From positions 21,678-45,677 of the forward strand of contig JANZKC010000003.1 of NCBI GenBank assembly GCA_025061115.1: DNA of 24,000 nucleotides. Direction: 5' to 3'. Positions within the stretch are counted from its first letter, which is position 1. Each line of letters starts with the position of its first letter. The translations under genes were made by a program, and so were the position numbers. Positions 6,416 through 19,549 of this stretch are shown piece by piece. Source of the stretch: Candidatus Culexmicrobium cathedralense. GTDB taxonomy: Archaea > Thermoproteota > Methanomethylicia > Culexarchaeales > Culexmicrobiaceae. The notes beneath the pieces were generated by a model, which worked only from the letters and a program-made list of their open reading frames with translations, was not told the origin of the DNA and ran no database searches.

Positions 6416-8044
6416 GTGTATGATCTCGTTATTAAGAATGGGCGTGTAATTGACGGCACCGGCAACCCATGGTTTAAAGCTGACATAGCAGTTAAAGATG
6501 GAAAGGTAGTTGAAATTGGAGAAATACCACAGTCAAAAGCTGATGAAGTTATTGATGCAACTGGCCAAATTGTATGTCCGGGTTTCATAGACATGCACAG
6601 CCACTCAGACCTTTTTCTTCTAATAAATCCAAAGGCTGAAAGCAAAATTAGGCAGGGCGTAACGACCGAGGTTATCGGCAATTGTGGAGCAAGCCTATTC
6701 CCAATATTACCTGGTAAAGTGGAGATTTTCATGAAGCGAGTTGGCGCATTAGCTGAGGAAGTTACTTGGGACTGGCATACGCTTGATGAATATGCCGAGA
6801 AGCTTGAGAATCAGGGGATTTCCGTAAATGTCGTTCCACTTGTTGGTCATGGCACCTTAAGGATCAATGTTATGGAATTTGAGAATAGAGCTCCAACAAA
6901 AAATGAATTGGATGAGATGAAGGCTTTGCTCGAAGACTCTCTTAAAGTTGGAGCTTTCGGCATGTCGACTGGACTGATATACACGCCTGGGTCGTATGCC
7001 AATACTGAAGAGATAATTGAGCTGGCAAAAGTTGCTTCAAGATATGGCGGAATATATGCGTCTCATGTTAGAAGCGAAAGCACGTGGCTTTTAGAAGCAG
7101 TGAGGGAGGCAATTAGAATCGGTAAGGAAGCTGATATTCCAGTTGAAATTTCACATTTAAAGTCAGCTGGAAGGAGGAATTGGGGAAAAGTTAGAGATGC
7201 TTTAAGAATTATTGAAGCTGCTAGGGATGAGGGCGTAGAGGTTACGTGCGACTTTTACCCATATACTGCTGGAAGTACTGGTCTTGCTGCATGTTTACCT
7301 CCTTGGGCTCATGAGGGCGGATTGGAGGAAATGCTAAAAAGGCTCAACGACCCGTCGGCAAGAGCTAAGATGAAGAAAGACATAGAACGGGGATTGCCTG
7401 GGTGGGAAAATCTGGCTGGAACAGCTGGTTGGGACAGCATAGTTGTAGCTTACTGTGAAAAGAATAAGGAGTATGAAGGATTAAGCATAGCTGAAATAGC
7501 AAAGATGAGGGGTGTGGATCCTTTTGATGCTGCATTCGACCTTCTTCTAGAGGAGGAGGGTGTTGTAAGCATTATTTTGCATATGATCTGTGAAGATGAC
7601 ATGCGATACGTCATGAAGCATCAGCTAACGATGGTTGGAACGGACGGCTCATGCTATGCGCCGTACGGGCCATTGGCTAGGGGGAAGCCTCACCCGAGGA
7701 ATTATGGAACGTTTCCAAGAATTTTAGGTAGGTATGTTAGAGATGAGAAAGTGCTTTCACTGCAGGATGCAATTAGGAAGATGACTTCAATGCCTGCGCA
7801 GAAACTTGGATTGAGAGATCGCGGCTTAATTAGAGAGGGATTTTGGGCTGACATAGTGATATTTGACCCGCATAAGGTACTCGATAAAGCTACCTTTAAG
7901 AATCCGCATCAGTATCCTGAGGGAATAACCTATGTCATTGTTAATGGGAAAGTTGCAATAGAAAAAGGGGAGCATACGGGCGTTTTGGCAGGGAAGGTTT
8001 TAAGGAGAGGTTCTCATCGATACTCCGCCAATACCAAGTCGTAA
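6416..8044 (+). CDS. N-acyl-D-amino-acid deacylase (D-aminoacylase) family amidohydrolase
   Basis: The track ORF begins at TTG 6392. GTG 6416 is preferred because GGAGGTG (6402-6408) lies 7 nt upstream and the product then starts MYDLVIKNGRVIDGTGNPWFKADIAVKDGKV. Motifs: PGFIDMHSHSD metal site, SHVRSE, EISHLK, and the C-terminal ADIVIFDP...ATFKNPHQYPEGITYVIVNG typical of this family. Confidence 0.9.
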   Translation: MYDLVIKNGRVIDGTGNPWFKADIAVKDGKVVEIGEIPQSKADEVIDATGQIVCPGFIDMHSHSDLFLLINPKAESKIRQGVTTEVIGNCGASLFPILPGKVEIFMKRVGALAEEVTWDWHTLDEYAEKLENQGISVNVVPLVGHGTLRINVMEFENRAPTKNELDEMKALLEDSLKVGAFGMSTGLIYTPGSYANTEEIIELAKVASRYGGIYASHVRSESTWLLEAVREAIRIGKEADIPVEISHLKSAGRRNWGKVRDALRIIEAARDEGVEVTCDFYPYTAGSTGLAACLPPWAHEGGLEEMLKRLNDPSARAKMKKDIERGLPGWENLAGTAGWDSIVVAYCEKNKEYEGLSIAEIAKMRGVDPFDAAFDLLLEEEGVVSIILHMICEDDMRYVMKHQLTMVGTDGSCYAPYGPLARGKPHPRNYGTFPRILGRYVRDEKVLSLQDAIRKMTSMPAQKLGLRDRGLIREGFWADIVIFDPHKVLDKATFKNPHQYPEGITYVIVNGKVAIEKGEHTGVLAGKVLRRGSHRYSANTKS

Positions 8045-8940
8045 ACCATATCTCTTTCAGTCAATATCCCAACAAGCTCATTATTTTCAACTACTGGTAG
8101 TGCTCCAATTCTCCTCTCGGACATTATTTTTGTTGCTTCGCCCAATTCGGCATCTGGACTTATTGTTATGACTGGAGATGACATGATATTCGATATGGGT
8201 ATTCGAATTAAGTCGTATATGCTGCATTTGGGCGACAGCTGAATTGCCCTTTTCAATTGAAATAGCTTTACTATATCCATGGCAACAACTATTCCAACCA
8301 GCTTGTCATCAACTATAACTGGAAGCCTTCTAAAACCTAAATTTATCATGGTTTGGGAAGCTTCTTTAACTGTTGTTTCTGGGGATGCCGTAACTACATC
8401 CTTTGTCATTATGTCCTTTACCTTCTTTCCGGTAACCTTATTAGCCAAATATCGAAGCACATCTCTTTCGGTGATGATGCCAAACACCTTTTCATCTTCA
8501 TCTACTATTGGGACTGCCCCCACATTATTGACTACCATCCGCTCTAGAACATCTACAAACGTCTCGTCAATATATGCCTTAACGACGTTCCTCACCATTA
8601 TTGATTCAATAGGCTCTTCAACCGCCTTATACAAATTTCCTTCATGCCTATTAACTATGATGTTGAAGTAATCTCCACCGCCAAAATAATTCACCAAGTC
8701 TGTTGCAGTTACAATTCCTAGCAGCCTCTTGTCAGGCATGGTGATTGGAACCCTTCTGAATCCGTGGCTTACCATCATTTGAATAACCTCTTTAACTGGA
8801 GCTCGCTGGGATGCCGTTATTACAGGTTTCTTAACAATTACGCTCAGTTCAAATTCTCTTTCGTAAATTTTATCTGAGAAGTTGGGCTTGCCATCACTCC
8901 TTAAAAAGCGAGGTTCAATTCTTCTCATTTTACATTTCAT
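8014..8940 (-). CDS. CBS-domain protein with four tandem CBS motifs (two Bateman modules) and no other domain
   Basis: 308-aa ORF with ATG 8940 after GGTGA. Four repeats of the CBS pattern occur: ...GFRRVPIT..LLGIVTATDLV; ...NVGAVPIVDEDEKVFGIITERDVL; IMTKDVVTASPETTV..GFRRLPVIVDDKLVGIVVAMDIV; IMSSPVITISPDAEL..RIGALPVVENNELVGILTERDMV. The 3' end overlaps the D-aminoacylase 3' end by 31 nt. Confidence 0.9.
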   Translation of the reverse strand: MKCKMRRIEPRFLRSDGKPNFSDKIYEREFELSVIVKKPVITASQRAPVKEVIQMMVSHGFRRVPITMPDKRLLGIVTATDLVNYFGGGDYFNIIVNRHEGNLYKAVEEPIESIMVRNVVKAYIDETFVDVLERMVVNNVGAVPIVDEDEKVFGIITERDVLRYLANKVTGKKVKDIMTKDVVTASPETTVKEASQTMINLGFRRLPVIVDDKLVGIVVAMDIVKLFQLKRAIQLSPKCSIYDLIRIPISNIMSSPVITISPDAELGEATKIMSERRIGALPVVENNELVGILTERDMVYDLVLAEYR

Positions 8941-8987: not shown

Positions 8988-9437
8988 TTAATGCGTTACT
9001 GCAACTTTATTTCCACCGGCCCTTTTAACTTCTCTCAAAAGCTTTAACGCTCTCTTTCTCGTATAGCTGTTATATGCATCTCTTCTATTTTTAGCTGGCT
9101 TGCCTGTTACTGGTCCCAAAGCTACTGCAATAGATATGGAAGCACCTAACCGACTTATTTCCATCCTAATACGCTCTAGATCTTCAATGATTTCTTCCAA
9201 ATCCTTCTCAGAAATGTCTGGTATTTCAAGAACAACTTCTTCCGTACCTCTCTTTTCATCTAAACCATAAATAACCACTGCAAAGTGCTTGCGAACGAAT
9301 TGCCAGACCAGCGTTGTGAGTGTTCCAGTAATTATATTTGGCACATACTCGCTCCATCCTCGACTTTTGCTGAGCTCCTCAAACTTGTCTAAATCCATTA
9401 TTATGACGCATCCAGTTAGCATAACTTCAAACACCAA
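8988..9437 (-). CDS. stand-alone minimal palm-domain protein, GGDEF / Cas10-palm (mCpol)-like putative nucleotide cyclase
   Basis: 149-aa ORF. Start could be TTG 9437, GTG 9434 or ATG 9422. It is collinear by eye with a GGDEF domain: IIMDLDKFEE (DxDxFK), AVVIYGLDEK (xxGGDEF position, G-L-D-E), SISIAVALG (TxSxGxA), ALKLLREVKRAGGNKVAV (ALYxAKxxGRNRV). There is no sensor, transmembrane or other domain. Confidence 0.65.
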   Translation of the reverse strand: MVFEVMLTGCVIIMDLDKFEELSKSRGWSEYVPNIITGTLTTLVWQFVRKHFAVVIYGLDEKRGTEEVVLEIPDISEKDLEEIIEDLERIRMEISRLGASISIAVALGPVTGKPAKNRRDAYNSYTRKRALKLLREVKRAGGNKVAVTH

Positions 9438-9472
9438 TTTACTTAATGGTTAAGTTTTTGATTTCAGCTGAG

Positions 9473-9495
9473 GACCACTTCTTCATCTGGTGGTC
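9473..9495. promoter_or_regulatory. inverted repeat GACCAC-N11-GTGGTC next to a G-rich patch (GGTGGTCGGGCGGGG) in the divergent palm-gene/rgy intergenic region
   Basis: A perfect 6-bp inverted repeat read directly from the sequence. It is the only GC-rich element in an otherwise AT-rich 147-nt spacer. Function unknown (operator or RNA hairpin). Confidence 0.25.
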
Positions 9496-9539
9496 GGGCG
9501 GGGTATTTTCATCATCAAGAACTATAAGAGTGCTAAGGT

Positions 9540-9550
9540 AAATATAAAAT
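9540..9550 (+). promoter_or_regulatory. candidate archaeal TATA box for reverse gyrase
   Basis: AAATATAAAAT is centred ~40 nt upstream of ATG 9585. The expected TSS ~25 nt downstream would leave a short leader carrying GAGGT (9574-9578). Positional and compositional argument only. Confidence 0.35.
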
Positions 9551-9584
9551 TGGCTGAATTGAAGCGATGACCCGAGGTTGAATC

Positions 9585-12500
9585 ATGAACTCGATTAGGA
9601 GTCATGGAATATATAGGCATGCTTGTCCAAACTGCAGGGGCGAGGAAGATGATGGCAGGCTCTTTCTGGGAGCTCCATGCTTTAAGTGCTTCCCACGTGA
9701 AGTTGAAAGTAGAATTTCAATCTACAAATTATATGATCTTCTAAGGAATTATGGTTCTCTTAAAGAAGTTAAAGAGCTATTTAAATTGCATAAGGGCTTG
9801 GATGAAGTTGATGAGCTTTTCCATAAAGCGACTGGAAGTAGGTTGTGGAGCATTCAAAGAACATGGGTTAAGCGTGTTTTGAAAGGAAGGAGTTTCACTA
9901 TCATAGCTCCTACTGGTGTTGGCAAAACTGTTTTCGGCATGATAATGGCTCTTTTTCTTGCCTTAAAGGGTAAAAAAGCATACATCATAGAGCCAACCAC
10001 TCCACTTGTACTTCAAGTTTATAATAGGTTAATTAGTTTCGCAGATAAAGCAGGATTAGATGTGCAAATAATTGCTTATCATGCCCGTCTCAAACCTAAA
10101 ATTAAGAGCGAAGTACTAAGCAAGATTTCAAATGGGGACTTCGATATTCTCATAACAACATCAAGATTTCTAACTGCGCGATTTGATGCTTTAAAGGGTA
10201 AGCATTTCCATTTCATATTTGTTGATGATGTCGATGCGATATTGAAGAGCTCTAAAAATATCGACCGTATTCTAAGCTTGCTTGGATTTACTGATGACGA
10301 AATTGCAGACGCTTACGAGCTCGTTAAACTTAGGAATAGAATTACCAAGTTAATTAGCTTGCATAGGAAAAGTCCGGAGATCAAAGAGTTAATGGAAAAT
10401 TACGATAAACTTGTGAAGCGAGTAGCAAAGATTAAGGGCAAATCGAAATCGATTCTCGTTGTTTCGAGTGCTACGGGAAGACCTAGAGGACTGCGCGTTA
10501 AACTATTTAGAGAACTTTTAGGCTTTGACGTTGGATCTAGGTCGGAGCTACTTAGAAACGTAGTAGATGTTTACTGCAAGGTTTCTCCTGAAAAATCAAT
10601 TGAGGAGATGATAGTTGAGCTGGCAAGTAATCTTGGATCAGGAGGACTCGTATTCGTTCCAGTAGATAAGGGTCTCGAGTACGCTGAGAAGTTAGCAGAA
10701 ATACTTGTTGAAAGCGGAATTAAAGCTGAAGCTTTTTCCTCCAAGAACATTGAAGCTTTAAGTAGGTTTATTGAAGGGGAAAGCGATGTCTTAGTTGGCG
10801 TAGCTTATTACTATGGAGTTATGGTTAGAGGCCTCGATCTACCAGATAAAGTGAGGTATGCATTATTCGCCGGGATTCCAAAATTTAAGTTTAACACCAA
10901 GTTAGATGAGCCTCATCCCTCAAATATTCTTCGTGGATTAACGATAATTAGCGAAGTTGTTGAAGGAATTGAGGAAAAAAGGCGAATTGAAAGGCTAATT
11001 GCTAGGGTTAGGCGTTACATGCAAATTTTGCCTGTGGCGCTCTTAAATGAAATTGGTGGCAAGCTAGCTGAAGGCATTAAACCTAGTACTGACGCTGAAA
11101 GAGTATTTTACGAGGCTCTTCAAGTACTTAGGAGCTACTTGGCTAGAAGCGACATCAAGGATAAGCTGAAGAAACTGGAAGATGTAAGGTTGATCGAAGA
11201 AAACGGGAAAACTTTCATTTTAATACCGGATGTCATGACTTACATTCAAGCTAGCGGTAGGACATCCAGAATGTTCGCTGGAGGATTGACGAAGGGGCTC
11301 TCGATTGTAGTGGTTGATGATGAGCACTTACTTAAGGGACTTATGAAGCGCGCTAAGTGGATTATTGAAGACATGGAGTGGCGAAGCTTAGAAGAAGTTG
11401 ACATAAAATCCATAATTGATGAGATAGATAGAGATAGGCTAGCGGTTAAGCAGTTGCGTGAAGGTAAAATAAGAATGGAATTTAAAGATCCAATGAAGAC
11501 GGCGCTGATGGTTGTAGAATCGCCAAATAAAGCTAGAACTATCGCCAACTTCTTTGGGAAGCCTAGCGTGAGGAGATTTGAAGAACTTAAGGTATACGAG
11601 GTTTCTACTGGAGAGCTACTTTTAATGATCACCGCAAGTGGCGGCCACATTTATGACTTAGTGACAGACGTAGGTTATCATGGAGTTTTACTTCCAAAAG
11701 ATGGTGGAGCCTTCCTCCCAGTATACACTGCAATAAGAAGGTGTTTGAAGTGCGGATATCAATTCAGCGATGACCTGGATAAGTGTCCTAAGTGCGGCAG
11801 TAGCGTTTTGAGGAATTCGCTTAAAGTAATTGACTTCATTAGAGCTCTCTGCGAAGAAGTTGATTTAGTGCTGATCGGAACTGATCCTGACACTGAAGGA
11901 GAGAAAATTGGGTGGGATTTAGCTGCTCTCCTCACGCCATACGCGAAAGAGGTTAAGCGAATAGAATTCCACGAAGTAACTAAAAGGGCAATACTGGAAG
12001 CATTAAGGAGCGCGAGAAGCTTCGATACAAATCTCGTAGAAGCGCAGATAGTTAGGAGAGTTGAAGATAGGTGGATAGGTTTTGAATTGAGCAAACGATT
12101 ATGGAGTGCATTCAAGAGAAGGGGATTATCTGCAGGTAGAGTTCAAACACCAGTTTTAGGCTGGATTATTGAGAGGGAGAGGGAGTTTAAGGAGAGCTTT
12201 AAGAACGTGTACTCAATATTGCTGCCATATGGCATTAAAGTTGAATTGACGGAAGATGAAGTATTGGAAAAGCTCGTCAAAGCTGAGCTCGTCAAGGCGA
12301 AAATTAAGGTCTTGGACGTGGTTGAAGAAGATATGCACCCGCCTCCACCCTACACGACTGATACTTACCTGCACGATGCTTCTAAAAAGCTTAGGTTAAC
12401 CGCACCTGAAGCCATGCAAATAGCGCAGGACCTATTTGAACTAGGCTTCATAACATATCACAGAACAGATAGCACGAGAGTCTCCACATTTGGACAATAT

Positions 12501-13232
12501 GTTGCTAAGGAATATTTGTCTGAGAAATTTGGAGCTAAAGCCGAAGAACTTTACATGCCTAGAAGCTGGGGGGAGGCTGGTGCACATGAGTGCATAAGGC
12601 CTACAAGGCCATTGGACGTAAATAGGGTAAGAGAGCTCATAGCTGAGGGAATAATAACGCCAATAAAGCCTCTAACTAAAAGGCACTTTCTCGCCTATGA
12701 TATGATCTTTAAGCGATTCATTGCAAGCCAAATGAAGGCGGCAAAAGTAGTAAGGCAGAAAATAGAGCTAAGCATACTGGGAGTAGCTAGAAATATAGAT
12801 AGGATCATTAAGGTTAAGGAGCCTGGCTTCTTAACGGTTAATCCAATAGTAAGAGTTGAGGTTAAAGTCGAGGAAGGCGAAGTAAAGCCGGTAAAAGTTG
12901 ATGTAAGGCGAAAGGCGCTGGTAACCCTTTACACGCATGGAGATGTGATAAGGCTTATGAAGGAGCGCGGAATTGGCAGGCCATCAACCTACGCCAAAAT
13001 AGTTCAAACTTTAATACAGCGAGGATATGTTATGGAGACAAAAAGGAAGAAATTGATGCCGACAAAACTAGGCAAAAGCGTCTATAGGTATTTAGCTTCA
13101 AAATATGGCAATCTAGTATCGGAGAAGAGAACTGCAATGCTTGAAGAGATAATGGATCAGATCGAGAGAGGGGAGCGCAATTACATTGAAGTTTTAAGTG
13201 AGCTATATAGGGAAATTTCGTCAATACCTTAA
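9585..13232 (+). CDS. rgy: reverse gyrase (helicase-like domain fused to type IA topoisomerase)
   Basis: 1215-aa ORF with ATG after GAGGT (9574-9578). It has an N-terminal Zn finger (CPNCRG...CFKC), Walker A APTGVGKT, DDVD box, SSAT and QASGRTSR helicase motifs. The TOPRIM region has VVESPNKARTI and DPDTEGE, with an inserted Zn finger CLKCGYQFSDDLDKCPKCG. The topo IA active site ITYHRTDS has its Tyr codon at 12456-12458. Length and order are canonical. Confidence 0.97.
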   Translation: MNSIRSHGIYRHACPNCRGEEDDGRLFLGAPCFKCFPREVESRISIYKLYDLLRNYGSLKEVKELFKLHKGLDEVDELFHKATGSRLWSIQRTWVKRVLKGRSFTIIAPTGVGKTVFGMIMALFLALKGKKAYIIEPTTPLVLQVYNRLISFADKAGLDVQIIAYHARLKPKIKSEVLSKISNGDFDILITTSRFLTARFDALKGKHFHFIFVDDVDAILKSSKNIDRILSLLGFTDDEIADAYELVKLRNRITKLISLHRKSPEIKELMENYDKLVKRVAKIKGKSKSILVVSSATGRPRGLRVKLFRELLGFDVGSRSELLRNVVDVYCKVSPEKSIEEMIVELASNLGSGGLVFVPVDKGLEYAEKLAEILVESGIKAEAFSSKNIEALSRFIEGESDVLVGVAYYYGVMVRGLDLPDKVRYALFAGIPKFKFNTKLDEPHPSNILRGLTIISEVVEGIEEKRRIERLIARVRRYMQILPVALLNEIGGKLAEGIKPSTDAERVFYEALQVLRSYLARSDIKDKLKKLEDVRLIEENGKTFILIPDVMTYIQASGRTSRMFAGGLTKGLSIVVVDDEHLLKGLMKRAKWIIEDMEWRSLEEVDIKSIIDEIDRDRLAVKQLREGKIRMEFKDPMKTALMVVESPNKARTIANFFGKPSVRRFEELKVYEVSTGELLLMITASGGHIYDLVTDVGYHGVLLPKDGGAFLPVYTAIRRCLKCGYQFSDDLDKCPKCGSSVLRNSLKVIDFIRALCEEVDLVLIGTDPDTEGEKIGWDLAALLTPYAKEVKRIEFHEVTKRAILEALRSARSFDTNLVEAQIVRRVEDRWIGFELSKRLWSAFKRRGLSAGRVQTPVLGWIIEREREFKESFKNVYSILLPYGIKVELTEDEVLEKLVKAELVKAKIKVLDVVEEDMHPPPPYTTDTYLHDASKKLRLTAPEAMQIAQDLFELGFITYHRTDSTRVSTFGQYVAKEYLSEKFGAKAEELYMPRSWGEAGAHECIRPTRPLDVNRVRELIAEGIITPIKPLTKRHFLAYDMIFKRFIASQMKAAKVVRQKIELSILGVARNIDRIIKVKEPGFLTVNPIVRVEVKVEEGEVKPVKVDVRRKALVTLYTHGDVIRLMKERGIGRPSTYAKIVQTLIQRGYVMETKRKKLMPTKLGKSVYRYLASKYGNLVSEKRTAMLEEIMDQIERGERNYIEVLSELYREISSIP

Positions 13233-13280: not shown

Positions 13281-14474
13281 TTAGCTTCTTAAATTTACAC
13301 TCCATCTTTCTGATATCGACTTTAATCTCTTGAATGCGAATAACTTCTCCTTACTGCCAACTCTCATATCCGATATGATTTGCTCAAGCTCGTAAACTAC
13401 GCTGTCGTAAACTTTTCGGTTAATTGGATATGGTATTCCATCTTTACCTCCAACTGCGAAAGACCATTTAATTGGGTCGAATATGTGTGTTATAGGATCC
13501 TTCTTAGATGGCGGTTCGTCGTAAATGAGTTCTGAAATTAATGCTAGCGCCCTGAGAGTTGAAGGTCCTATGCCCCTAAATAAAAGAAAACTTTCAAAAT
13601 CCTCAGGCTTAACTTGGAACACATTTCTTAGCGCTCTCCAATTGATTGCTATTTCTTCAATTGGCTTGTAATAATCTAGCTTTACGGCTAATTCATTTTT
13701 GCCGCTAAACCACCTGGTTATTGGACAATTCTTTCTCAGAAACCTCTTAATAGAACCTAAATCTCTCTTTAGCTTTGCAGGTCCATGATTAATAATTTCT
13801 AGAATCGTATTCCTGCAGCTTCTACTCTCTCTAGCAACTAGATTTAAAGTTGATTCGCTTATTTTAACGTCGACTATGGCGTTATGAGGGTCTTCAACGA
13901 ACTTCCTTACTTTGCTTGACAGCCAATGATATCTTCTAGCCATGCGCTTTTCAACGTTCATTCCCTGCTGAATTACAGTCCACGATCCGCTTTTTGAAAC
14001 TATCATTGAGTGGTGATATATTGAGTAGCCATCTTGAAGAGCTGCATTGTCAATTTTTGCTACTAACCTACTAATTCTAGCAAGCTTCTCTCCATACTCC
14101 TCTCCTAAATCAAGCTTGATGGCTGCCTGTTTAACTTCAATTGGCGTTTCCAGACTTTTCTTCCCTTTACCGCCGGCTATGGCTATTTCAACTTCACTTT
14201 TGTTTAGAGCTTGCCTTAGAACTCCGCAGACAACTGTTGTGGACCCTGAGGAATGCCAATCGAATCCTAGAACATTGCTGAAAGCTTGAAACCACAGTGG
14301 ATTTGCAAGCCTTTCGAGAAATTTGTCCTCTCCAAATTCGTTCACGAAGACTGTGATAATTGCATTTGCTAGTTTAACCATTCTATTAAATAGCCATCTT
14401 GGAACTGATCCTTCATGTAATGGTAGTTCTGCTATTCCTTTGATGCTCAATTTTACTCCCAATTCAATATGCAC
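13281..14474 (-). CDS. DUF763-family protein (conserved, uncharacterised; contains a helix-hairpin-helix-like GIGPSTLRALAL element)
   Basis: 397-aa ORF. The N-terminal ELPLHEGSVPRWLFNRMVKLA...ANPLWFQAFSNVLGFDWHSSG matches my recollection of the DUF763 signature. The C-terminal FRGIGPSTLRALALISE resembles an HhH motif. It starts 32 nt downstream of the TOPRIM gene on the same strand. The family name is from memory and needs an HMM check. Confidence 0.7.
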   Translation of the reverse strand: MHIELGVKLSIKGIAELPLHEGSVPRWLFNRMVKLANAIITVFVNEFGEDKFLERLANPLWFQAFSNVLGFDWHSSGSTTVVCGVLRQALNKSEVEIAIAGGKGKKSLETPIEVKQAAIKLDLGEEYGEKLARISRLVAKIDNAALQDGYSIYHHSMIVSKSGSWTVIQQGMNVEKRMARRYHWLSSKVRKFVEDPHNAIVDVKISESTLNLVARESRSCRNTILEIINHGPAKLKRDLGSIKRFLRKNCPITRWFSGKNELAVKLDYYKPIEEIAINWRALRNVFQVKPEDFESFLLFRGIGPSTLRALALISELIYDEPPSKKDPITHIFDPIKWSFAVGGKDGIPYPINRKVYDSVVYELEQIISDMRVGSKEKLFAFKRLKSISERWSVNLRS

Positions 14475-14506: not shown

Positions 14507-14914
14507 CTACCTATAAGCTCTGCGCCTTAAGGCTGTTAACTCTTCGATTGCTAAGATGTTTTCTCTAATCATAATGTTCTTTAATGTTTTTCTAAAATAC
14601 CTATGAACTTTAACTCCCATTTCTTCAAGCTCATTTTCAAGTCGTTTTGAGAGCTTTTCACCTTCGCTGTCGAAGTCCATTAGCACTGCTATTCTTTTCC
14701 CTTTGAATTTCTCTGCTAATTTTTCAGTGAATTGAAATATTGGCTTTCTAGAATCGCAGAACCTTATGATTTTACCTCTATATCCATATCTTCTCAGCGC
14801 TTTTTCGTCGTGTGACCCTTCAACTATTACTGCATCTACGGAGAAATTTAACTCTTCGATCAATTTTTCTATGCGCTTCATTAATTCAAAGTCCGCTTTT
14901 CTTTTCCTCTTCAT
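14507..14914 (-). CDS. small TOPRIM-domain protein (RNase M5-like / small primase-like family)
   Basis: 135-aa ORF with the conserved Glu in AVIVEGSHDEKAL and the DxD-type acidic cluster VLMDFDSEGEKL. Its ATG 14914 directly abuts the moaB stop (TAAATG on the coding strand). Confidence 0.8.
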   Translation of the reverse strand: MKRKRKADFELMKRIEKLIEELNFSVDAVIVEGSHDEKALRRYGYRGKIIRFCDSRKPIFQFTEKLAEKFKGKRIAVLMDFDSEGEKLSKRLENELEEMGVKVHRYFRKTLKNIMIRENILAIEELTALRRRAYR

Positions 14915-16910: not shown

Positions 16911-17924
16911 TTAAATTATTTCCTTAATGTTTTTGATTACGCTCCATACTTCATTTGGAATATACTTCTTTCCTAAAATAAAACTTAAAACTTTACTTTT
17001 TAATGATAGTTTTAATCTAAATCCGCAAGCATATGGATGTCCCCCTCCACCATATTTTTGAGCAATCGGCAAAAGGTTTATTTCTTTGCCTTTGGAGCCT
17101 ACGTAAAGTGAAATGGCGTTGTTTCGTCTTAGAACCATAATGAAATCTAAATCCAGTTTTTCGGATATTTTTCTTGCAATCCAGCTTTTTGGAAGATTTA
17201 CCTTTCGCAAATCTATGATTGCAAATTTCAAATTATTATGGGTTTTCATCTTAATTGCTCGTTTTATTGTTTTTGAAACTTCAGCTTCCGCTTCCTTTCT
17301 TAATCGGTCTGAAATTCTCCTTATTTCATCATCGAAAAATATTCCCTGGGTAAATTTTTTGAGAAGCTTCTTTTTCCATTTGCTTTTGTAGGTTAAGATT
17401 CTAAGTATAGGGCTTTCATTAAATTTATCTCTCAATGAATCGATATCGTCGGCGTACATTGCTATCTTCTTTGAGATTTCATCTTCCGGCATGAATTTTT
17501 CTAGAACTATTCTTGCTGCACTTGGTGCTTTTTCCATTAAAATTAGCTCAGCTATGTTGGATAACTTTTGAATGTATTCCCTTCTCCACTTGTGATGATC
17601 TATCCATGTAATTTTTGAACCATGATTTTTTATTTGTTTTAATTGCCTGAGAATTGAATGTTCATCAATAATGTTTGGGGATATGTCTGTTATGTATAGA
17701 GTAATTGAAGATTTTGGAATTACGCTTAGGACTCTTAATAATGATGAGGGTCCAGAGAATATGACTGAAATTGCTTTCTCATCGATTTTTTCCTTTAATT
17801 TCAGGTATCTTTTGAGAATTGCTGCGCATGAAATTCCATCTACGTCTGAGTGCGTTATTATGATTGCTTTAGGTTTTTTAAAGGCTATTTTCGCTCTGAG
17901 CTTGATTTCATCCAGCTTTCTCAT
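16911..17924 (-). CDS. DHH/DHHA1-family phosphoesterase (NrnA-like nanoRNase/pAp phosphatase type)
   Basis: 337-aa ORF with motif I IIITHSDVDGISCAAIL, motif II LYITDIS, motif III WIDHHKW (DHH), and the DHHA1 motif YGGGGHPYACGF near the C-terminus. Confidence 0.88.
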   Translation of the reverse strand: MRKLDEIKLRAKIAFKKPKAIIITHSDVDGISCAAILKRYLKLKEKIDEKAISVIFSGPSSLLRVLSVIPKSSITLYITDISPNIIDEHSILRQLKQIKNHGSKITWIDHHKWRREYIQKLSNIAELILMEKAPSAARIVLEKFMPEDEISKKIAMYADDIDSLRDKFNESPILRILTYKSKWKKKLLKKFTQGIFFDDEIRRISDRLRKEAEAEVSKTIKRAIKMKTHNNLKFAIIDLRKVNLPKSWIARKISEKLDLDFIMVLRRNNAISLYVGSKGKEINLLPIAQKYGGGGHPYACGFRLKLSLKSKVLSFILGKKYIPNEVWSVIKNIKEII

Positions 17925-18366: not shown

Positions 18367-19077
18367 ATGATTGGAGCGACGTTGAGGAAGATATCTGCCG
18401 CATTTCTATTGGTTTCCATAGTCGCTGTCTTCCTAACACTTTACTTCATGGCTAATGACTTATCGACTTTAAGAGTCTTAGCAAGAATTGATGATATGAT
18501 GGTTGATAGTGATGGAGTTCATTTTAATTTAGAGTTGAATTTTACCTATAATGGATTGCGGCCTTTAATCAATTTTAAAGCAGTGCTCTTATTAAATAAT
18601 GAGTCATTCAGTTCGCGGGCATTGGATTTGAATAAAGGAACTACTATCTTCGTGATTCCATGCAAGCTTGGCCTATCCTATATTGGTAGAAATGTAACGG
18701 CATCAGTGGGCTTTAGCACTTCTTATGCTAACTTGATTCCAATTCATGTTTCACTACCTGCCAAGAGCTATATTCCGATTGAAGTGATAGCACCTGCTTC
18801 TGCAGTCTCCTCAATTGACTTTAATTCGTCTCATGCTGAAGTTTCATGTATGATCATTGCTTTGGCAAACATCAAGCTTAGTGGAGTTGCGAAGCTTACT
18901 TCCAATGGAATTGAGGTTGCTAAGACTAACATCCCTCCACTGAAGAGAGAATCTACTCAATTGTTGAAGTGGTATGTTAGATTTGAGGATCTTGAGAAGC
19001 TTGATGCAATTGAATTTTACTTGGACACGCCTACAGGTTACATTAAAATTTACGAGTGGAGGTTAAAGGGTGGTTAG
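18367..19077 (+). CDS. hypothetical membrane-anchored extracellular protein, beta-rich, with N-glycosylation sequons
   Basis: 236-aa ORF with an N-terminal anchor AAFLLVSIVAVFLTLYFMA followed by a beta-strand-like alternating sequence. It carries four N-x-S/T sequons (NFT, NES, NVT, NSS). No family recognised. Confidence 0.7.
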   Translation: MIGATLRKISAAFLLVSIVAVFLTLYFMANDLSTLRVLARIDDMMVDSDGVHFNLELNFTYNGLRPLINFKAVLLLNNESFSSRALDLNKGTTIFVIPCKLGLSYIGRNVTASVGFSTSYANLIPIHVSLPAKSYIPIEVIAPASAVSSIDFNSSHAEVSCMIIALANIKLSGVAKLTSNGIEVAKTNIPPLKRESTQLLKWYVRFEDLEKLDAIEFYLDTPTGYIKIYEWRLKGG

Positions 19078-19549
19078 GTTAAATTGGCATAGAATTAGGA
19101 GGATATCTAAAAGAATTGTTTTAGGCGTTTTTTCAGGTTTATTTAATTATGTCTTATACTTCATAATTCCAGATTACATCTATAAGTTTCTTAGATTCAT
19201 GATTTCGAGCGCTTATCCTGAAGTTGCAGGTGTTATTGGGCTTCCAGCAATTCGACCAACAGTGGAACTTTCAGCACTGGCGATATTCTTGATTTTAAGT
19301 TGCTTATCATCATTGCTTTCAGGTTCATGGTTTGGGTATTTAATTGCTGTAACTTCATCTTCTGTTTTCATGTTTTACGCCATTTCGCTCATGAATTTTG
19401 GAAGAATTTCCGTCGAGTACCAAGGTGTTGGCGTTACAGTTGAATTCTCGGTGCTTATAGTTGTTTGGTTTACGTCATTTATTTTGGATGTTTTGGGTCG
19501 AGCATTTGACTTGATTGAGCGCGAGGCGAAGTTTATCCCTACCCTCTAA
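19070..19549 (+). CDS. hypothetical integral membrane protein
   Basis: 159-aa ORF whose GTG 19070 overlaps the upstream stop by 8 nt. GGAGGT (19058-19063) lies 6 nt upstream, suggesting translational coupling. It has 4 hydrophobic segments. Confidence 0.7.
   Translation: MVRLNWHRIRRISKRIVLGVFSGLFNYVLYFIIPDYIYKFLRFMISSAYPEVAGVIGLPAIRPTVELSALAIFLILSCLSSLLSGSWFGYLIAVTSSSVFMFYAISLMNFGRISVEYQGVGVTVEFSVLIVVWFTSFILDVLGRAFDLIEREAKFIPTL

Follow-up and report, generated by a model that had tools for sequence, protein, structure and literature searches.

A stand-alone GGDEF-like palm protein from Candidatus Culexmicrobium cathedralense and its archaeal family, candidate makers of a signalling nucleotide

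The 24,000-nucleotide stretch of DNA analysed here, from the hyperthermophilic hot-vent archaeon Candidatus Culexmicrobium cathedralense (contig JANZKC010000003.1, positions 21,678 to 45,677; hereafter the window) carries, at 8988-9437 on the minus strand, an open reading frame (ORF) whose product, on the evidence of sequence comparison and a structure model, is a minimal, single-domain palm of the GGDEF superfamily. On balance, we consider that this palm protein would be an active enzyme condensing nucleoside triphosphates (NTPs) into a di- or oligonucleotide. An initial annotation, made from the DNA letters, had described the ORF as a sensor-less, single-domain GGDEF or Cas10-palm (mCpol)-like protein and pointed to bacterial conflict systems as the setting of such minimal palms. 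The predicted fold, the structural search and the profile-profile alignment bear out the sensor-less GGDEF-superfamily palm; the relationship to mCpol and Cas10 and the conflict-system setting fared less well.

The AlphaFold2 model, built with the family alignment as input (pLDDT 94.2, pTM 0.88), shows the element order beta1-alpha1-alpha2-beta2-beta3-alpha3-beta4-alpha4-beta5. Its comparison with the PDB by Foldseek returned 39 matches at E<0.001, all of them palms of the nucleotide-cyclase type apart from two designed proteins. The list is headed by GGDEF domains (6d9m, E=4.3e-6, followed by 4zve, 3ign and 4zmm); class III adenylyl cyclases come next, and then the mCpol protein OptS (9pd0) and Cas10. 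Among the viral structures of BFVD, annotated phage diguanylate cyclases were found among the top matches. No solved structure of a family member was present among the sequence or fold matches to the PDB.

Profile comparison led to the same superfamily. When 1.84 billion representative proteins (clusters at 50% identity) were searched with the family profile, the first protein from outside the family (P0082, E=1.3e-4, over the full length) was a bona fide GGDEF protein (PF00990 at 8.4e-37), and its alignment with the family by hhalign was significant (probability 95.5%, E=1.4e-8, 133 columns). The Pfam GGDEF model PF00990 was matched by 8 of 40 homologues (best E=0.0039), and the Pfam mCpol model (PF18182) by a single one of them (E=0.035) and not by the palm protein itself, indicating that the nearest relatives are the GGDEF domains proper rather than mCpol or Cas10. 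The alignment of the palm protein with the NCBIfam GGDEF model TIGR00254 is collinear (residues 10-148 on model positions 38-167 of 168), the N-terminal 37 or so positions of the canonical domain being missing. Searches with one sequence, or against sequences of known structure, gave little: the single-sequence Pfam scan yielded no GGDEF match and only noise (the matches to Arena_nucleocap, DUF4763 and RsaX20 in the Pfam and NCBIfam scans were regarded as such); phmmer against the PDB reached the GGDEF domain of DosC at E=0.3; and the family profile matched GGDEF sequences of the PDB weakly (E=0.015-0.1), below two designed proteins (sr312 and DeNovoTIM13) which were discarded as helix/strand low-complexity similarity.

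The motifs of the GGDEF domain are found one after another in the palm protein, all encoded on the minus strand. The first strand, beta1, carries D15-L-D17-K-F19 (9381-9395), which corresponds to DxDxF, was aligned by hhalign with DLDHF, and includes the two predicted metal-binding aspartates. It is followed by a family-specific segment, G27-W-x-x-Y31-x-P33-N34-x-x-T37-G-x-L-T41 (9315-9359), equivalent to GHxxGDxxL with short insertions; here G27-W falls on GH and N34 on the aspartate of GHxxGD. The beta2-beta3 hairpin, G58-L-D-E-K-R63-G64-T65-E66-E67-V68 (9234-9266), contains the family signature RGTEE, with RGTEEV aligned to YGGEEF and with E66 and E67 as the predicted catalytic and metal-binding acids. 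In the model this hairpin is lengthened (strand 54-58, loop 59-66, strand 67-76), and the signature reads G-T-E-E-(V/A) rather than GG(D/E)EF, the acids and the lysine being retained. Strand beta4, S100-I-S-I-A-V-A-L-G108 (9114-9140; residues 101-107 in the model), is the equivalent of TxSxGxA, and divergent members show T-x-S-x-G-x-A at those very columns. Finally, the C-terminal helix motif A130-L-K-L-L-R-E-V-K138-R-A-G-G-N143 (9009-9050) corresponds to A..LY.AK..GRN: K138-R-x-G-G-N143 is placed on AK-x-x-G-R-N, and K138, aligned with the lysine of AK, would be the lysine that binds the phosphates and stabilises the transition state.

Conservation was counted over 284 unique full-length family sequences. 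D15, D17, G58, G64, E66, E67 and K138 are invariant (284/284); N34 and T65 (283/284 each), P33 (281/284) and T37 (276/284) are nearly so. The initial annotation had read the strings IIMDLDKFEE, SISIAVA and ALKLL..VKRAGGN as the DxDxF, TxSxGxA and AK..GRN motifs, and these three assignments hold. Its equation of GLDEK with the GGDEF signature does not, since hhalign places RGTEEV (residues 63-68) there and D60 is kept in only 259 of the 284 sequences (91%; serine or asparagine in the others). The register it had chosen was a reasonable guess, because single-sequence phmmer likewise set YGLD on YGGD, with a 6-residue gap. Two outcomes that would have spoken against the initial annotation by its own terms, the lack of a significant match to palm cyclases and variable acidic residues among the orthologues, did not occur.

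The residues expected to recognise guanine are changed, in agreement with what had been noticed in the single sequence. The column of the asparagine of xND, which we take to be the first guanine contact (PleD N335), is variable in the family, and the position of N34, presumably that of the second contact (PleD D344), is occupied by asparagine instead of aspartate. Because of these two changes the base specificity is probably not of the canonical guanine type. A change at the aspartate of "GD" is reportedly what alters base specificity within the GGDEF fold of the Hypr enzymes. These cyclic GMP-AMP synthases (GacA of Geobacter) are full-length bacterial proteins with receiver domains, and they carry serine where the palm family has asparagine. 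They are mentioned in a recent review (PMC10249747).

Compared with the bacterial GGDEF cyclases (PF00990/TIGR00254; DosC 4zve, 3ign, WspR, PleD), the palm protein has the same fold and element order, collinear motifs (DxDxF, GH..G(D), GG(D/E)EF against GTEE(V/A), TxSxG and AK..G.N) and the same predicted two-metal NTP chemistry. It differs from them in its sub-threshold similarity, its shortened N-terminus, its G-T-E-E signature and the loss of the GRN arginine, and in having neither the guanine contacts nor a receiver domain. The RxxD I-site is absent from its sequence and alignments, and the protein has no N-terminal helix, sensor, effector or further domain of any kind. The palm family, moreover, is confined to archaea, unlike these bacterial enzymes.

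Invariant metal ligands and an invariant catalytic lysine combined with altered base-specifying residues are the pattern of an active enzyme whose substrate specificity has changed. In the mechanism that we propose, two Mg2+ or Mn2+ ions would be held by D15 and D17 on beta1 and by E66 (and E67), which sit at the tip of the hairpin formed by beta2 and beta3; K138, aided by R139, would bind the triphosphate, one NTP per monomer. By analogy with the GGDEF and mCpol enzymes, two monomers would pair in antiparallel fashion, bringing the 3'-OH (or 2'-OH) of the NTP in one subunit into position to attack the alpha-phosphate of its counterpart, and the product would be a linear pppNpN, a cyclic dinucleotide, a short oligonucleotide or some combination of these. 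As the protein has no sensor, its level of expression, the supply of substrate or a partner protein would determine how much product is made.

The gene itself is beyond reasonable doubt: its homologues, the confirmed loci and the retention of the proposed catalytic residues in 284 sequences argue that the ORF is genuine and not a chance frame. As predicted initially, it runs from a TTG at 9437 to a TAA stop at 8988-8990 on the minus strand, its translation has 149 residues, and all the peptide strings quoted in that description are present in it; the start, in contrast, is probably the ATG at 9422 (M6), which gives a protein of 144 residues. This start is preferred because public gene calls have 144 (P0001) or 148 residues (P0085), because the homologues begin one to five residues ahead of the conserved first strand, and because a TATA-like, A/T-rich stretch, read by eye, lies 15-37 nt upstream of the ATG on the minus strand. 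That stretch belongs to the divergent intergenic region (9438-9584) which the palm gene has in common with reverse gyrase, and which would act as promoter. Two overlapping antisense ORFs on the plus strand (9100-9270 and 9289-9453) were rejected as mechanical by-products of the conserved minus-strand gene. The near-identical public protein is labelled "hypothetical protein" (Candidatus Culexmicrobium cathedralense, phylum Culexarchaeota).

The palm family is small, compact, isolated in sequence and restricted to archaea. The first search found 40 homologues (133-178 aa, E 5.6e-86 to 5.4e-22). Scanning a single genome for each species, we confirmed 94 loci and retained 80 of them, and the exhaustive hmmsearch of the 1.84 billion proteins retrieved only 45 at E<0.001. 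Members are found in Desulfurococcales sensu lato (Pyrodictiaceae, Acidilobaceae, Desulfurococcaceae, Fervidicoccaceae, Ignicoccus pacificus, Pyrodictium, Staphylothermus, Thermodiscus and Aeropyrum-like metagenome-assembled genomes, MAGs), and also in Culexarchaeia, Geoarchaeota, Methanomethylicota, Heimdall/Hodarchaeales, other Asgard MAGs and one contig of 65% G+C. Among the members from cultured species are IPA_04350 of Ignicoccus pacificus, CF15_04080 of Pyrodictium occultum and PABY_15920 of P. abyssi.

The novelty implied by the initial annotation has to be reduced. The census of Galperin (2005) already listed "truncated" GGDEF domains in Methanopyrus kandleri (MK0296, Q8TYK1) and Aeropyrum pernix (APE1864, Q9YAS9) without counting them as cyclases (PMC1183210), and Anantharaman, Iyer and Aravind (2010) predicted that the archaeal GGDEF relatives are active but are not signalling proteins (PMC2904730). 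As described, those two proteins are small, archaeal, truncated at the N-terminus, provided with three catalytic acids and devoid of signalling domains, a description which the palm family fits exactly; the family also has members in Aeropyrum MAGs (L080, P0168) and one on the 65% G+C contig (P0067, locus L089), whose composition resembles that of Methanopyrus. Judged by this published description, the palm family is probably the MK0296/APE1864 "truncated GGDEF" family, noted in silico in 2005 and 2010; further large homologue searches and cluster look-ups turned up no entry bearing the name of M. kandleri or A. pernix. A few members had in addition been labelled automatically as "GGDEF domain-containing protein" in UniRef and JGI. 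No experimental work is known on the palm family or on those two proteins.

The genomic context was surveyed in 92 loci, in which ORFs were called, neighbours within 4 kb were clustered and the recurrent clusters were annotated. No universal partner was found among these loci. The most frequent neighbour is the gene of the TATA-binding protein (TBP), adjacent to the family gene in 47 of the 92, at a median distance of 118 bp and in four relative orientations, across Desulfurococcales (L003-L087; for example 5291-5872 in L003 and 6551-7159 in L005). A metallophosphoesterase of the TIGR00024 family ("SbcD_rel_arch"; 130 bits against a cut-off of 115) is present in 36 loci, mostly just past TBP and at times directly adjoining the family gene, and the trio of palm, TBP and TIGR00024 genes has been kept through at least seven gene orders in Desulfurococcales. 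A different phosphoesterase, a small PHP+PHP_C protein of about 200 aa, has its gene immediately downstream of the family gene and on the same strand (-16 to +38 bp) in five loci of Asgard archaea, one of Methanomethylicota and one with a gene fusion (L007 6498-7139, L008, L072, L082, L088, L040 6432-7028 and L091 5644-6237), an arrangement which looks operonic. The fusion, in the last of these loci, is P0076 (292 aa), composed of a Toprim domain (PF01751, 6e-7) and a GGDEF-like palm. It is a possible Rosetta-stone link between the palm and the small Toprim protein of the window, the two genes being 5 kb apart in the window and not neighbours elsewhere. The PHP protein is related to RNase AM and pAp phosphatase, and TIGR00024 to SbcD/Mre11 and to the DNA-damage endonuclease PdeM. 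On the 65% G+C contig (L089 3436-5432), there is a 4-bp overlap between the family gene and the stop of a D-3-phosphoglycerate dehydrogenase gene, a different and apparently operonic setting.

If the palm protein makes a nucleotide, the linked PHP enzymes (in Asgard archaea, Methanomethylicota and the Toprim-fusion lineage) and TIGR00024 (in Desulfurococcales) would be the best candidates for the turnover of the product, as the linkage of two unrelated phosphoesterase families in different lineages suggests a synthase-hydrolase pair. A fuller proposal can be put forward only tentatively, and we hold it to be rather doubtful in its entirety: that the family synthesises a new cyclic or linear di- or oligonucleotide messenger, not specific for guanine, with PHP and TIGR00024 as its dedicated phosphodiesterases, in hyperthermophilic Thermoproteota, Culexarchaeia, Methanomethylicota and Heimdall/Hodarchaeales. 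In Desulfurococcales, the adjacency of TBP might reflect a tie to basal transcription.

Several observations weigh against the proposed NTP-condensing enzyme itself. None of the curated Pfam and NCBIfam models reaches its threshold for the palm protein, TIGR00254 scoring 17.0 bits (E=0.0036) against a cut-off of 37.4. The TM-scores to known palms are moderate (0.5-0.63), which marks the protein as divergent within its superfamily, with the GGDEF domains proper nearest to it. The arginine of the GRN motif (R446) is replaced by glycine (G142). The links to TBP and the phosphoesterases may be synteny inherited within one order, there is no evident receptor or effector that would respond to a product, and no biochemical study of any family member was found in the literature. 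No archaeon has so far been found to contain cyclic di-GMP (c-di-GMP; PMC10249747); the species tested for it appear to be without the palm family. The linked partners, finally, are all enzymes of the nucleic-acid type, which would suit a nucleic-acid-directed enzyme equally well.

This last point leads to the first alternative, a nucleotidyltransferase acting on nucleic acids (Thg1-like 3'-5' addition, terminal transfer, or synthesis of primers or dinucleotides) in cooperation with the nuclease-type partners. It is the main rival, though we regard it as unlikely. The recurrent partners (PHP, TIGR00024, the Toprim fusion and the DNA-binding TBP) all belong to families acting on nucleic acids or their ends, and an RNA-specific nucleotidyltransferase activity has been suggested for some GGDEF domains (Anantharaman et al. 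2010, PMC2904730). Thg1, however, matches the model far more weakly than GGDEF domains do (E=4e-3 and a query TM-score, TMq, of 0.38 in BFVD; none among the top 50 PDB matches), the palm has no fingers, thumb or obvious nucleic-acid-binding extension, and the residues that the family conserves correspond, in the hhalign alignment, to the NTP-binding site of GGDEF domains.

The second alternative would make the protein a class III-type mononucleotide cyclase, forming cAMP, cGMP or another 3',5'-cyclic nucleoside monophosphate at the interface of a homodimer. The structural matches to Ma1120 and Rv1900c are nearly as good as those to GGDEF domains (E 5e-5 to 5e-4, TMq up to 0.63), but the class III model PF00211 is absent from the Pfam matches of the 40 members, of which eight match GGDEF, and hhalign recovers each GGDEF motif in turn, GGEEF and AK..G.N among them, making this reading quite improbable. 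Even less probable is a non-catalytic nucleotide-binding receptor, comparable to some degenerate GGDEF proteins of bacteria: the non-canonical GTEE in place of GGDEF and the exclusion of MK0296 and APE1864 from the cyclases counted by Galperin (PMC1183210) would agree with it, but metal ligands and a catalytic lysine invariant in 284 sequences from several phyla are the pattern of an enzyme, and the RxxD I-site is missing.

GTP cyclohydrolase III (MJ0145, 2qv6), an archaeal enzyme whose palm resembles those of GGDEF domains and cyclases, has two palm-like halves. It is the one characterised archaeal enzyme of this fold, and a similar hydrolase, opening the ring of GTP or releasing pyrophosphate in cofactor biosynthesis, was considered. 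Its match to the model (E=1e-3) stands only at rank 43 of the Foldseek list (TMq 0.51), the Pfam and NCBIfam searches gave no match to GTP cyclohydrolase III (PF05165), the enzyme has 253 aa against 144-149 aa, its chemistry is hydrolytic, and there are no riboflavin or F420 genes near the palm gene, so that we give this reading very little credence.

Least probable of all is a defence synthase of the mCpol (Panoptes-like) type, whose nucleotide product would serve as decoy or as alarm for an effector directed against viruses. A bare palm such as OptS can reportedly make a cyclic dinucleotide as a homodimer. The mCpol/OptS proteins of Panoptes (PF18182; 9pd0, 9mnr) resemble the palm protein in size, in being minimal stand-alone palms and in fold (9pd0, E=1.4e-4, target TM-score, TMt, 0.67), but the sequence signal is negligible, amounting to the one member of 40 that touches the Pfam model, and mCpol genes sit in bacterial defence operons beside effectors. 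In the 92 loci the family gene has neither an effector (CARF, SAVED or 2TM) nor any defence gene beside it, PADLOC gave no meaningful match for the ORF, its CBS neighbour, PHP, the metallophosphoesterase or the fusion protein, and the placement by TBP, reverse gyrase and metabolic genes is stable across orders, which is unusual for defence genes. The Cas10 palms (9g9d, 4doz, 3w2w; E 1.7e-4 to 1.2e-3) have the same fold, and Cas10 is common in archaea and makes cyclic oligoadenylates, but it is a multidomain protein (557-976 residues in the matches) with two palm domains and a GGDD signature, working in an RNA-guided complex encoded with csm/cmr genes; no cas genes surround the palm ORF in the window. 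The neighbours being housekeeping genes, the conflict-system setting is not upheld, and we infer a housekeeping or signalling role for the palm family, not one in anti-virus defence.

The other genes of the window were surveyed as well. Reverse gyrase (1215 aa; zf_Rg, DEAD/ResIII, Toprim and Topoisom_bac domains) is encoded in full length at 9585-13232 on the plus strand, divergently from the palm gene across a spacer of about 148 bp, as it is in the loci of the closest relatives (L001, L002, L009, L010); the organism had rightly been called a reverse-gyrase-encoding archaeon. A protein of four CBS domains (8014-8940, minus strand; four stretches matched by Pfam CBS, E=6.5e-59) is encoded 47 bp downstream of the palm gene, and the spacer ahead of its gene contains a TATA-like TATATATTT and a Shine-Dalgarno-like GGTGA. 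CBS pairs bind ligands containing adenosine, and the protein shows a sub-threshold match to CbpB, which binds cyclic di-AMP. As receptor of the product, the CBS protein was nevertheless rejected: its gene, 47-58 bp downstream, is confined to the window's closest relatives, which share the adjacent reverse gyrase (five loci; L001, L002, L009 and L010 show this arrangement), and it is therefore not a family-wide partner.

Two more candidates of the window were dropped. The free-standing small Toprim protein (135 aa, PRK04017/UPF0292 type; 14507-14914, minus strand) matches the PRK04017 models below their cut-off (E=6e-18) and is homologous to residues 1-140 of the fusion protein P0076 (phmmer E=1.2e-9); as a general neighbour it was rejected, its gene being found near a palm gene in the window only, at 5 kb. 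The DHH-family phosphoesterase (337 aa, weak RecJ-like matches; 16911-17924, minus strand) has no homologue near the family gene in any other locus, and the link was therefore abandoned; L005/L006 do have a DHH gene, some 5 kb from the family gene.

The region between 1997 and 8044 encodes metabolism of the amino-acid type (a class III aminotransferase, two Amidohydro_3 amidohydrolases and a DAP-epimerase-fold protein). Near the family gene in L001/L002 there are likewise aminotransferase, Amidohydro_3 and DAP-epimerase-fold genes, plus Asp/Glu racemase and S-Me-THD genes; the cluster appears to be locally conserved synteny that has nothing to do with the palm protein. Other sizeable ORFs encode an uncharacterised DUF763 protein (397 aa; 13281-14474, minus strand) and three uncharacterised proteins of 443, 236 and 159 aa (669-2000, 18367-19077 and 19070-19549, plus strand), for which neither Pfam nor NCBIfam gave a match at the thresholds applied.

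According to later reviews, which leave the palm family aside, archaea have next to no GGDEF domains, and c-di-GMP is yet to be detected in them (PMC5847659, PMC10249747). Heimdall/Hodarchaeales and numerous hyperthermophiles in culture (Ignicoccus, Pyrodictium, Staphylothermus, Aeropyrum-like) carry this conserved, apparently housekeeping family of bare palms with an intact predicted catalytic centre. If these proteins are active, they would bring to light either a nucleotide messenger new to archaea or a novel kind of nucleotidyl transfer, would reveal the function of a GGDEF domain that lacks a sensor altogether, and would bear on the proposal of a single ancestral enzyme for the GGDEF, Cas10 and Thg1 palms (PMC2904730). 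By its sequence, the palm protein is a good candidate for an archaeal synthase of a signalling nucleotide, and if the messenger proposal were true, archaea, among them the lineages nearest to eukaryotes, would have a GGDEF-derived signalling system of their own.

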